Below are positions 18,712 through 55,230 of a stretch of DNA of 64,000 nucleotides, piece by piece. Where the stretch lies: the NCBI RefSeq assembly GCF_055900595.2, contig NZ_CM148325.1. One strand, given 5' to 3'. A model generated the notes under the pieces. It searched no databases. It was not told the origin of the DNA and saw only the letters and a program-made list of their open reading frames with translations. Positions within the stretch are counted from its first letter, which is position 1. Each line of letters begins with the position of its first letter. The position numbers were made by a program, and so were the translations under genes.

Positions 18712-18804
18712 GGTGAGGTGGCCGAGAGGCTGAAGGCGCTCCCCTGCTAAGGGAGTATGCGGTCAAAAGCTGCATCCGGGGTTCGAATCCCCGCCTCACC
18801 GCCA
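18712..18804 (+). tRNA. serV: tRNA-Ser (GCT anticodon)
   Basis: 93-nt class II tRNA with long variable arm, GGTGAGGTGGCCGAGAGG...CGCCTCACCGCCA. Confidence 0.9.
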
Positions 18805-18807
18805 TTT

Positions 18808-18884
18808 GCATCCGTAGCTCAGCTGGATAGAGTACTCGGCTACGAACCGAGCGGTCGGAGGTTCGAATCCTCCCGGATGCACCA
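18808..18884 (+). tRNA. tRNA-Arg (ACG anticodon), copy 1
   Basis: 77-nt GCATCCGTAGCTCAGCTGGATAGAGTACTCGGCTACGAACCGAGCGGTCGGAGGTTCGAATCCTCCCGGATGCACCA. Confidence 0.92.
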
Positions 18885-18946
18885 TATTCTACGAAATCTT
18901 CAGCAATGAAGGTGTCGAAGAGGTGGCGGTACTAACCGCAAGCACC

Positions 18947-19019
18947 AGGGAGGATAACGTTGCTTTAGCAACGGCCCGAAGGGCGAGCCGTAAGGCGAGT
19001 AATCCTCCCGGATGCACCA
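18947..19019 (+). other. tRNA-Arg 3'-end remnant (aatcctcccggatgcacca) embedded in a 73-nt insert with internal inverted repeat (gggagga...tcctccc)
   Basis: 19-nt exact copy of tRNA-Arg T-arm/acceptor 3' end without a 5' half, seen directly in spacer after copy 1. Confidence 0.6.
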
Positions 19020-19083
19020 TCTCTTACTTGATACGGCTTTAGTAGCGGTATCAAAAAATCTGCAGTAAAGTAAGTTTCCCGAT

Positions 19084-19160
19084 GCATCCGTAGCTCAGCT
19101 GGATAGAGTACTCGGCTACGAACCGAGCGGTCGGAGGTTCGAATCCTCCCGGATGCACCA
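19084..19160 (+). tRNA. tRNA-Arg (ACG anticodon), copy 2
   Basis: Identical 77-nt sequence. Confidence 0.92.
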
Positions 19161-19262
19161 TATTCTCCGTAATCATCAGTGATGATGGTTAAGATGGATT
19201 TTCTTATTTGATATGGCTTTAGTAGCGGTATCAATATCAGCAGTAAAATAAGTTTTCCCGAT

Positions 19263-19339
19263 GCATCCGTAGCTCAGCTGGATAGAGTACTCGGCTACGA
19301 ACCGAGCGGTCGGAGGTTCGAATCCTCCCGGATGCACCA
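19263..19339 (+). tRNA. tRNA-Arg (ACG anticodon), copy 3
   Basis: Identical 77-nt sequence. Confidence 0.92.
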
Positions 19340-20586: not shown

Positions 20587-22170
<1,584 letters not shown>

Positions 22171-22178
22171 CAGAAAAG

Positions 22179-22251
22179 AAAAAGGCCACTCGTGAGTGGC
22201 CAAAATTTCATCTCTGAATTCAGGGATGATGATAACAAATGCGCGTCTTTC
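22179..22251 (-). ncRNA. micA: sRNA MicA (SraD)
   Basis: Minus strand reads GAAAGACGCGCATTTGTTATCATCATCCCTGAATTCAGAGATGAAATTTTGGCCACTCACGAGTGGCCTTTTT; terminator hairpin plus T-run; convergent with gshA 3' end. Confidence 0.88.
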
Positions 22252-22319
22252 ATATACTCAGACTCGCCTGGGAAGAAAGAGTTCAGAAAATTTTTAAAAA
22301 AATTACCGGAGGTGGCTAA

Positions 22320-22835
22320 ATGCCGTTGTTAGATAGCTTCACAGTCGATCATACCCGGATGGAAGCGCCTGCAGTTCGGGTGGCGAAAACAATGAACACC
22401 CCGCATGGCGACGCAATCATCGTGTTCGATCTGCGCTTCTGCGTGCCGAACAAAGAAGTGATGCCAGAAAGAGGGATCCATACCCTGGAGCACCTGTTTG
22501 CTGGTTTTATGCGTAACCATCTTAACGGTAATGGCGTAGAGATTATCGATATCTCGCCAATGGGCTGCCGCACCGGTTTTTATATGAGTCTGATTGGTAC
22601 GCCAGATGAGCAGCGTGTCGCTAATGCCTGGAAAGCGGCAATGGAAGACGTGCTGAAAGTGCAGGATCAGAATCAGATCCCGGAACTGAACGTCTACCAG
22701 TGTGGCACTTACCAGATGCATTCGTTGCAGGAAGCGCAGGATATTGCGCGTAGCATTCTGGAGCGCGATGTACGCATTAACAGTAATGAAGAACTGGCAC
22801 TGCCAAAAGAGAAGTTGCAGGAATTGCACATCTAG
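22320..22835 (+). CDS. luxS: S-ribosylhomocysteine lyase (AI-2 synthase)
   Basis: 171 aa with HTLEH metal motif. Confidence 0.96.
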
Positions 22836-22853: not shown

Positions 22854-22887
22854 GCCGGGCTGGTGAAATCACCGCCCGGCTTTTATT
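22854..22887 (+). terminator. Rho-independent terminator after luxS (possibly bidirectional)
   Basis: ggccgggctggtgaaatcaccgcccggc hairpin followed by ttttatt; overlaps stop of convergent HD-kinase gene. Confidence 0.7.
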
Positions 22888-23998
22888 ACCTGTCAGTCAC
22901 CCGATATTCCACGCTATGTGCTTCATCAGGTTGAGGAACTTCCAGCCTTGAGGCCATCCGCATCACGACCGCTTCAGGAACGGCATACTCGCGCCTGGCA
23001 TTTTGCTGCTTCCATTGCGCCCACGGTACTTCCAGATAAACGATTTTTACTCGTGCACCGTAAGCCGTAAATAGACTGATGAGCTGGCTACGCAACTGGC
23101 GGGTAATGTTCGTTGCATTCCAGATGAACGGCTTCTTCTGGCGTAAAAAAACGCGCGCTTCTTCTTTTGCCTGTTGCACAATACGCCCGGTGGCGGTTTT
23201 GTCGTCCGGACTGGCATTGATTCGCCGCCGCATATCATCAAGGCTGATAACGTTCACTCTCTGGCACTGTTCACTGATAAAGCGATCTTTGCCCATACCC
23301 GGTAAACCACACAGCAAAATAACCTCAAAAGATTCAGCCTCCCAGGGAACAAAATCAGGAGAACTTTGTTCATGGGTCAGGTAATGCCAGCGTGCGGAAT
23401 CCGAAGCGAATGAACGCACTTTTCCCCAGCATTGTTGCTCCTGGCAAAATAGCTCGAACAGATCGATGCGTTCCAGCATTGATTGCTGATCATGACAATG
23501 GCGACCAAGCAGATCGGCACGAGCAAGCAAAGCGAGCAGACGTGTGTCGATACGCATTGCAGCCGTGAGCAGCAAACGCTCCGGTTCCGGACGTTCCAGT
23601 AACCATAGCGGTAACCCATGCAGACGCACCAGTGCAACAATTTGCTCGCGTAGCACGAACGGCGTCGGGATATCGCGCCATAAAATTTGTCGGGCCGTCA
23701 ATTCCCCCCGACGAGCATGACCAGGGGACTGAATACGTCCGTTTTCCTGCACGGTAGTACTGCGCTTTTCAACGTCATGCAATAACGCCGCCGCCCATAA
23801 AATTTCCTGCTGCTGAGCGGGGAGTTGCTGAAACTCAGCCATCGCAACGAGTGCGTTCAGCACCATTTCAGTATGCACACCAACGTCGCCTTCACCATGA
23901 TGCTCCGGGTCTTGCGGCGTGTTATGCATATCCTCAACCCAGCTAAAACGCTGGCGTAGCGTCGACCAGCGTTTGTCGTCGGTAAGTTGCCAAATCAT
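22886..23998 (-). CDS. HD-domain phosphohydrolase fused to P-loop polynucleotide-kinase-like domain (candidate RNA end-healing enzyme)
   Basis: 370 aa; N-terminal H...HD motifs ([24 protein letters not shown]); C-terminal Walker A ([13 protein letters not shown]); start overlaps upstream ligase stop (ATGA). Confidence 0.6.
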
Positions 23999-24702
23999 GA
24001 CTGTTCTCCATAAGCGAACTCATGGGCCATCCGCGCCCGTCGCCAGTGGCGTTTCCAGTGCTCGGTGGTTTTGACATGATTTTTGCGCACATACTTGAAG
24101 ACGTTATGCGAAAAGTCAGCGACGGAAAACGCATCACGATTCCGGCTGACAATGCCTTCCAGCGTACAGGGTTGCCCGGTTTGTGTATCCCAGGGATCGA
24201 ACGCGCCGCGCGCATTGGTCAGCGCCAGAAAATCACGTTGCCAGCTTTTTTCATCATTCCCCGGCTGCGGGCCGGAGATTTCGGGAACGCAGGGGAAATC
24301 AAACAGAGCGGCGTAAAACTGCACCTCTTCCCAGCTCAGCCACATATCCTGGCAGCGAACGGCAAACAGGTAAAAGTCCTGTTCCAGGGCGCGGTATTCA
24401 ATGGAATGAACGGCGTAGAGATTTTCACCAAACAGTTCCAGATCGCCGAGATCGTTTTTCAGCAGTTGCCAACGCTGGCGAATTTTATAAGTCCATGCCG
24501 ACTGCGTAGGCGCAGCATGGGAACGGGCAAACACGCCGTAGCGGTTAAGGCAGTTATTTTCGCCGTCGAGTTTTTCTGTATGCACCAATTGCGTGATGGC
24601 CTGTAAATCCTGCCAGTAATCGGCATTAATACGGTCATCGCTGGTGGTGCCAGGGGAGAAAGGATAATGCCAGGTTCTCCCGTATTTCCGTTGGGTATTC
24701 AT
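23995..24702 (-). CDS. Minimal Rnl-type RNA ligase (nucleotidyltransferase domain only; candidate RNA sealing enzyme)
   Basis: 235 aa; motif I KxDGxN (EKLDGEN), motif III-like LFGENLY, motif IV EGIVSR, motif V FKYVRKNH in canonical order. Confidence 0.6.
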
Positions 24703-55154: not shown

Positions 55155-55230
55155 GGCCCTTTAGCTCAGTGGTTAGAGCAGACGACTCATAATCGCCTGG
55201 TCGCTGGTTCAAGTCCAGCAAGGGCCACCA
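55155..55230 (+). tRNA. ileY: tRNA-Ile2 (CAT anticodon, lysidine-type)
   Basis: 76-nt GGCCCTTTAGCTCAGTGGTTAGAGCAGACGACTCATAATCGCCTGGTCGCTGGTTCAAGTCCAGCAAGGGCCACCA; identity as Ile2 rather than Met inferred from genomic position. Confidence 0.85.

Follow-up and report, generated by a model that had tools for sequence, protein, structure and literature searches.

The compact interval between gshA and luxS raises the question of which genetic element it accommodates and how this element relates to the transcription of the genes on its two sides. In the window, which is the whole stretch of 64,000 nucleotides analysed here (contig NZ_CM148325.1 of RefSeq assembly GCF_055900595.2), positions 22171-22319 correspond exactly to the 149-nt intergenic spacer, with gshA and luxS lying in the same orientation on either side. 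The products of the two genes matched the Pfam families Glu_cys_ligase (1.1e-169) and LuxS (5.2e-59), respectively, and the genes are also annotated under those names in the matching E. coli records. We estimate a probability of about 0.96 that the locus as a whole represents the gshA-micA-luxS junction in its canonical E. coli form. The junction is an already known feature and holds nothing new, in agreement with the original prediction, which had listed the MicA locus as not being a novelty. The flanking elements are as follows.

20614-22170, plus strand: gshA, glutamate-cysteine ligase, with a TTG start, 518 aa and a TGA stop at 22168-22170 (open reading frame list and Pfam)
22171-22178: spacer separating the gshA stop from the annotated 3' end of MicA, 8 nt, or 9 nt if the MicA end is placed at 22180
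22308-22312, plus strand: luxS Shine-Dalgarno sequence GGAGG, read from the sequence
22320-22835, plus strand: luxS, S-ribosylhomocysteine lyase, 171 aa (open reading frame list and Pfam)

An Rfam cmscan of the whole window placed RF00078 at 22180-22251 on the minus strand, and the match extended over the full length of the covariance model (1-75 of 75) with a score of 83.9 bits (E = 1.4e-11), the gathering score being 41, so that the score exceeded the cut-off for MicA over the complete model. The record of E. coli K-12 MG1655 carries the ncRNA micA (b4442) at 2814802-2814874, corresponding to 22179-22251 of the window on the opposite strand, between luxS and gshA. The window could be aligned with MG1655 without gaps and without a difference from at least 22084 to 22340, and K-12 MicA (also SraD or psrA10; b4442; RF00078) was accordingly 100% identical to the window in the sRNA itself, as well as in its promoter, its terminator, the entire 149-nt spacer and the first luxS bases, with the same strand, spacing and neighbours. 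Thus, there is no unexpected departure from K-12 inside 22171-22319. The 3' part of gshA in K-12 differs from that of the window by a few substitutions, including one at 21986, and LuxS of the window presumably differs from the K-12 protein at about two residues. The elements of MicA are listed below.

22179-22251, minus strand: micA (MicA/SraD sRNA), 73 nt, with the +1 G at 22251 (Rfam and K-12 b4442)
22230-22251, minus strand: single-stranded 5' region of MicA for target pairing, RNA nt 1-22, with no pairs in the Rfam consensus
22208-22229, minus strand: MicA hairpin 1, RNA nt 23-44 (Rfam consensus structure and minimum free energy fold)
22179-22201, minus strand: MicA intrinsic terminator, with a 7-bp GC-rich stem in a hairpin at 22184-22201 and a T-run at 22179-22183
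22258-22285, minus strand: sigma-E-type promoter of micA, with the -10 element GTCTGA at 22258-22263 and the -35 element tGAACTC at 22279-22285, read from the sequence
22286-22303, minus strand: UP-like AT-rich tract upstream of the micA -35 element, forming part of the luxS leader on the plus strand

The position of MicA on the minus strand between gshA and luxS, which had been proposed from the raw sequence, was borne out by both the RF00078 match and the annotated K-12 gene. The proposed distance of 9 nt between the gshA stop and MicA holds with the end given by Rfam, which yields a 72-nt RNA, and becomes 8 nt with the 73-nt annotation of K-12, and the distance of about 70 nt from the MicA 5' end to the luxS start proved to be 68 nt between the +1 (22251) and the ATG (22320). 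The micA locus is hence mainly of use as a calibration point, in that a 73-nt sRNA, its strand and both distances were called right from raw sequence, and the first reading can therefore be regarded as trustworthy for that part of the window.

The internal organization of the RNA was also in line with this assignment. The unpaired 5' region, GAAAGACGCGCAUUUGUUAUCAUCAUC, is the same as in the Rfam consensus and in K-12 and is unique in the window, and the 23-nt motif from the 5' part of MicA occurs at a single site in the window when up to 3 mismatches are allowed, with a chance expectation of 0. MicA base-pairs through this region with its targets, among them ompA and phoP (PMC4618604). A scan for terminators on the minus strand reported GGCCACTCACGAGTGGCC at 22201-22184, followed by TTTTTCTTTT, indicating that the terminator faces gshA and that MicA is convergent with gshA and divergent from luxS, as had been claimed. 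Folding of a 76-nt RNA yielded both expected hairpins, with a minimum free energy of -21.2 kcal/mol and a z-score of -3.06 against shuffled sequences, and Rfam, the terminator scan and the fold agreed on a first stem-loop, an A/U-rich linker and a second stem-loop that forms a Rho-independent terminator. Among the matches listed, 92 unique homologues retained six stem pairs of the terminator invariantly around a variable loop, the closing pair differing as A-T, T-A or G-C, and the pairs of hairpin 1 were retained in 81-92 of the 92. Double changes in hairpin 1 were few in the same homologues (e.g., CG to TA and GC to AT). As the RNA hardly varies, covariation is sparse, and support for the structure therefore comes mainly from the Rfam model and the fold.

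Upstream of the +1, the minus strand reads tGAACTC, 15 nt, GTCTGA, the 6 nt gtatat and the +1 G, so that the boxes of a sigma-E promoter are in register with the start of MicA, this class assignment being a sequence match. Comparison of 106 unique enterobacterial promoters among the matches listed indicated that AAC (-32 to -30), TC (-11/-10) and A (-7) are invariant, and that the bases at -1 to -5 are 74-100% conserved, which is above the 34-77% found for the spacer between the -35 and -10 elements in the same set. Strict sigma-E dependence of micA has been shown in K-12, for which the same promoter signature and an AT-rich element 5' of the -35 element were described (PMC1851643). Within the corresponding tract of the window, the A-run at 22296-22300 was 80-100% conserved in 96 unique spacers among the matches listed. 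Taken together, the Rfam score, the identity with K-12, the register of the promoter and the presence of both hairpins and the terminator indicate that the element in the gshA-luxS spacer is MicA. By identity with K-12, MicA of the present strain would be expected to be expressed as an RNA of about 72 nt that depends on sigma-E and Hfq and represses ompA and phoP, as described for K-12 and Salmonella (PMC1851643, PMC4618604, PMC1804206).

The annotation of closely related genomes could be taken to suggest that the sequence has been kept in this strain as an inactive relic, giving no functional sRNA, since RefSeq annotation of near-identical genomes shows no feature in the spacer. RefSeq/PGAP indeed gives none in the non-K-12 E. 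coli genomes inspected, including the closest genome and four others with a 100% identical spacer. We treated the missing micA as an annotation gap rather than as an absence, since the same sequence carries a micA annotation in the K-12 record. Furthermore, the gene, promoter and terminator match base for base those of K-12, where MicA is expressed and functional, and the junction region was present in 5423 of 5426 complete E. coli genomes, with the 149-nt spacer at least 99% identical in 4699 of the 5426. A genuine loss allele also looks different, as exemplified by the deletion in E. coli R13 (see below). A relic is, therefore, highly improbable, and a functional MicA gene is the reading that we retain.

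The R13 allele deserves mention in its own right. In E. coli R13 (L123, NZ_CP107151.1), a 39-bp deletion corresponding to window 22230-22268 leaves a spacer of 110 nt and takes away MicA nt 1-22 with the seed and the +1, the micA -10 element and the proximal luxS -10 element and start. Such a natural micA-null allele is rare: among the 5423 matching E. coli genomes, coverage of the spacer falls below 80% in only 2. The annotation gap has a practical side as well, in that deletions of luxS or of its upstream region in unannotated strains can remove or disturb micA unnoticed. This trap has confounded biofilm phenotypes of luxS in Salmonella (PMC4618604) and comparisons of luxS mutants in Photorhabdus (PMC5488855).

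The conservation of the arrangement, which had also been claimed, was examined beyond E. coli by scanning one genome per species for an exact match to the 23-nt MicA motif GACGCGCATTTRTTATCATCATC, which gave at least 120 loci from about 44 named genera, including Escherichia, Salmonella, Citrobacter, Klebsiella, Enterobacter, Yersinia, Serratia, Rahnella, Pantoea, Erwinia, Pectobacterium, Dickeya, Sodalis, Hafnia and Edwardsiella. The loci were oriented as in the window, and their flanks were identified by tblastn with GshA and LuxS of the window. As a result, the order gshA(+), MicA(-), luxS(+) was found in all 111 informative loci, each from one species and holding both flanks, among the matches listed, and the remaining 9 loci among these matches are truncated at the end of the stored DNA, none showing another neighbour. 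Because the sample was chosen through the MicA motif, this result tells where MicA sits if it is present and not how often it is present, and the conservation of MicA nt 5-27 in the sample is by construction of the search motif. The same arrangement is described for Photorhabdus (PMC5488855; PMC1489923). In other Enterobacterales (Salmonella, Yersinia, Serratia, Pantoea, Pectobacterium and Edwardsiella, among others), the gene order, the sigma-E core and the terminator stem are as in the window and MicA measures 70-80 nt, whereas the hairpin loops and the linker differ.

Among the matches listed, the gap between the gshA stop and MicA was most commonly 8 nt (47 loci), followed by 5 nt (26 loci), with a range of -1 to 96, and the distance from the MicA +1 to the luxS ATG was mostly 67-80 nt. 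In 11 loci among these matches (L008, L013, L027, L029, L032, L050, L057, L060, L074, L084 and L100), including those of Superficieibacter, Pluralibacter, Kluyvera and Pseudocitrobacter, the latter distance was 122-179 nt rather than about 70 nt, which implies that sequence has been inserted between luxS and the promoter of micA.

Conservation along 96 distinct spacers among the matches listed tracked the terminator stem, hairpin 1, the 5' region, the promoter boxes and the GGAGG of luxS, the last being itself 80-100% conserved. This pattern bears on the idea that the spacer codes for a small protein, for which the mechanical list of open reading frames offers two candidates, namely, one of 46 aa at 22192-22332 on the plus strand and another of 48 aa at 22107-22253 on the minus strand. 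Each of them runs, in another frame, into the end of a real gene. The spacers come in 34 different lengths of 147-260 nt, not in steps of three, among the matches listed, and conservation follows the RNA and promoter elements (the stem and the -35 and -10 boxes, with a variable loop) and not codons. The small open reading frames were rejected on account of this free length variation and non-codon pattern of conservation, coding by the spacer being scarcely conceivable.

The closeness of the MicA terminator to gshA suggests another function that would be added to MicA rather than replace it. If the hairpin were bidirectional and also ended gshA transcription, its location only 8-9 nt from the gshA stop would be accounted for, as would the conservation of this tight gap, mostly at 5 or 8 nt among the matches listed. 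When a plus-strand terminator of gshA was sought in the spacer by the terminator scan, none was found; the MicA terminator on the minus strand was the only one reported, with no other terminator-like site between the gshA stop and luxS. The plus-strand RNA forms the same GC-rich hairpin within a fold of -22.8 kcal/mol (z = -3.6), and no evidence is cited for a polycistronic gshA-luxS message (Udekwu 2010, PMC2956633). Against this, the hairpin is followed on the plus strand by AAAATTTC (AAAAUUUC), which has no U-run, whereas a U-run is present on the minus strand (TTTTTCTTTT); an intrinsic terminator shared by convergent genes would have an A-run before and a U-run after the hairpin on both strands. 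Moreover, the luxS transcript that starts at 21988 from the distal promoter P1 reads through the hairpin (PMC2956633), and termination on the plus strand would therefore be at best partial. We consider a shared, partial termination of gshA at the MicA hairpin to be possible, with the balance tilting against a bidirectional terminator, and the hairpin primarily serves as the terminator of MicA in the reading adopted here.

The relation of MicA to luxS depends on where luxS transcription starts. The published 5' ends of K-12 were mapped to the window by gap-free alignment, on the basis of sequence identity, and the resulting elements are as follows.

21950-21988, plus strand: luxS distal promoter P1, inside the gshA coding region, with the start G at 21988 (-332 from the luxS ATG)
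22215 and 22237/22238, plus strand: other published luxS 5' ends inside micA (PMC7967276 Table S1; PMC2956633)
22229-22266, plus strand: luxS proximal sigma-70-like promoter, with the -35 element ATGATA at 22229-22234, 18 nt and the -10 element TATACT at 22253-22258

In K-12, three luxS mRNA species are made (PMC2956633). The start of P1 was located by 5'-RACE at a G at -332 and is sigma-S dependent (Udekwu 2010, PMC2956633), a 38-bp fragment from -371 to -332 is active in luc fusions in an rpoS-dependent manner, and the P1 transcript extends through all of micA (PMC2956633). The published primer sequences for the P1 fragment map to 21950-21988 of the window, and the -10/-35 region of the 38-bp minimal promoter matches K-12. 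The sole difference in 21950-21988 is A for C at 21986, which corresponds to -2 of the P1 start. Other luxS 5' ends, tentatively put down to processing, fall within MicA (PMC2956633). One of these belongs to the R3 species, which has an overlap of 14-15 nt with MicA and a 5' end at window 22237/22238, and which builds up with MicA and is missing when RNase III is lacking (PMC2956633). The dRNA-seq data of Thomason 2015, as given in Table S1 of PMC7967276, place the micA start at 2814802 (window 22251) and luxS starts at 2814838 (window 22215), with an overlap of 37 nt with MicA, and at 2814787 (window 22266), with no overlap. The luxS 5' ends thus differ among studies, lying at -332, -105, -83/-82 and -54. 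Transcripts antisense to MicA have also been detected by RNA-seq (PMC5389530).

The start at 22266 is of particular concern for the layout of the spacer. A promoter scan of the plus strand found 1 site against 1.1 expected in shuffled sequences, which alone is not significant; this sigma-70-like site was retained because its spacing fits the published start at 22266. It has 9 of 12 matches, with its -35 element within the micA seed and its -10 element abutting that of micA at 22258, and in 84 of 106 species among the matches listed the luxS -10 hexamer retained A2 and T6 and agreed with TATAAT at no fewer than 4 of its 6 positions. The proximal 70 bp upstream of luxS has been reported to have no promoter activity (PMC2956633), the fragment used being without the -35 element at 22229-22234.

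The original prediction had MicA transcription antisense to the luxS leader. Since the sequence is identical, the published antisense data of K-12 apply here, and they uphold this claim for the leaders that begin at 21988, 22215 and 22237/22238, but not for the shortest one, from 22266. An overlap of the long luxS leaders with the MicA transcript is thus supported by the mapping in K-12, from which it would be carried over to the present strain. The luxS isoforms vary with MicA and RNase III (PMC2956633). LuxS protein, however, was unchanged on overexpression of MicA (PMC2956633), and the effect of MicA on luxS was called unclear in a 2015 review (PMC4618604), so that a regulatory outcome of this cis-antisense arrangement, with biological weight, can be regarded only as possible. 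Our search of the literature after 2014 on MicA and luxS returned, apart from titles judged tangential, nothing beyond this review, a start-site compilation of 2021 and a paper on polyadenylation (PMC5389530).

It could nevertheless be supposed that the main purpose of MicA at this locus is the control of luxS in cis, through RNase III cleavage of the duplex between MicA and the luxS leader or through collision or occlusion of the two promoters, with its regulation of ompA and other targets in trans being secondary. The constancy of the gene order in 111 of 111 species among the matches listed is consistent with such a purpose, although synteny may persist merely through a spacer too tight to rearrange. 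Likewise, the luxS leaders overlap MicA and the formation of R3 needs both MicA and RNase III (PMC2956633), whereas the shortest luxS transcript, from 22266, escapes the overlap and the LuxS protein level did not respond to MicA overexpression, as noted above. At the level of DNA, the micA -10 element directly adjoins that of the proximal luxS promoter at 22258, and the conservation of micA -1 to -5 (74-100%), compared with that of the promoter spacer (34-77%), would fit a second constraint from the other strand. The best-conserved part of MicA is, however, its 5' seed, which pairs with targets in trans. On these grounds, a primary role in cis seems unlikely to us, and we regard repression in trans as the main role of MicA.

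Several E. coli sRNAs provide a useful comparison. In MicC/ompN, OxyS/oxyR, ArrS/gadE and SymR/symE, the 5' end of the sRNA, which may act in trans or in cis, overlaps the leader of a divergent mRNA as it does in MicA, the long leader starting beyond the sRNA start so that the two RNAs are complementary (PMC7967276). MicA is unlike those pairs in being wedged between two co-oriented genes, with its terminator nearly touching the upstream stop codon, and in having established targets in trans, its cis effect on luxS being without a demonstrated outcome at the protein level. RybB is the other classical sigma-E-dependent sRNA that represses omp mRNAs. Both RybB and MicA have sigma-E-type promoters and act as Hfq-dependent repressors of mRNAs for outer-membrane proteins (PMC1804206). 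RybB differs from MicA in its unrelated sequence, its different locus and its lack of overlap with luxS.

Based on these results, the locus may be suggested to work as follows. The identity, coordinates, structure, promoter motif, conservation and synteny come from the present analysis, and expression, sigma-E dependence, the transcription starts and RNase III processing are carried over from K-12 publications by 100% sequence identity. MicA would be transcribed from the sigma-E promoter at 22258-22285 under envelope stress or in stationary phase, as an Hfq-dependent sRNA of 72-73 nt, with transcription ending at its intrinsic terminator, at a distance of 8-9 nt from the end of gshA. Its main role would be played in trans, where the unpaired 5' end would base-pair with envelope-related mRNAs, including those of ompA and phoP, and repress them. 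As the micA promoter occupies the middle of the 68-nt gap, luxS is left without private promoter space, and its transcription would start either inside or beyond micA (21988, 22215 and 22237/22238) or at 22266, from a promoter that reaches into micA. The long luxS leaders would be fully or partly complementary to MicA and could be processed by RNase III in a MicA-dependent manner.

From the abutting -10 elements, we infer that the micA and proximal luxS promoters are probably not occupied simultaneously. Steric interference between micA and luxS was raised only as a possibility in the 2015 review (PMC4618604), and we found no direct test of promoter exclusion between them in the literature. 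The short luxS leader from 22266 has 54 nt and the long leaders are complementary to MicA. It might be, as a rather doubtful extension that we put forward tentatively, that the sigma-E promoter of micA and the sigma-70-like proximal promoter of luxS constitute a conserved, mutually exclusive pair and that envelope stress moves luxS transcription from the short leader to the long ones. If so, sigma-E activity would be coupled to the output of luxS/AI-2 and of the activated methyl cycle through promoter occupancy, besides the processing by RNase III.

Some other features of the window are also worth recording. Downstream of luxS, the luxS-emrB interval contains, at 22886-24702 on the minus strand, a two-gene cassette that is absent from K-12, in which the luxS-emrB gap is 63 bp. 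The first gene encodes a protein of 370 aa with a strong AAA_33 kinase-like domain and a weak HD-domain match (below the Pfam cut-off), the second encodes a protein of 235 aa of the RNA_ligase family, and the two open reading frames overlap by 4 nt. The cassette looks like a putative RNA repair, or healing-and-sealing, pair. Of 5426 complete E. coli genomes, 999 carry it there; the majority of the copies are only 90-95% identical to that of the window, and 8 are at least 99% identical.

Upstream of gshA, the serV-argV tRNA cluster at 18712-19339 comprises one tRNA-Ser(GCT) and three tRNA-Arg(ACG) genes, the latter at 18808, 19084 and 19263. An overlapping ARAGORN call of tRNA-Arg(TCG) at 18828-18899 on the minus strand is probably a mirror artefact. 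Four tRNA-Arg genes are found in an E. coli genome whose gshA-luxS junction is identical (L001), and K-12 also has four; one repeat unit is missing in the window. A further tRNA gene is located at 55155-55227 on the plus strand. Finally, the full-length tmRNA gene ssrA (291 bits) lies at 63196-63557 on the minus strand, about 41 kb from luxS; the corresponding distance in K-12 is about 59 kb, so that the intervening content would differ from that of the window.
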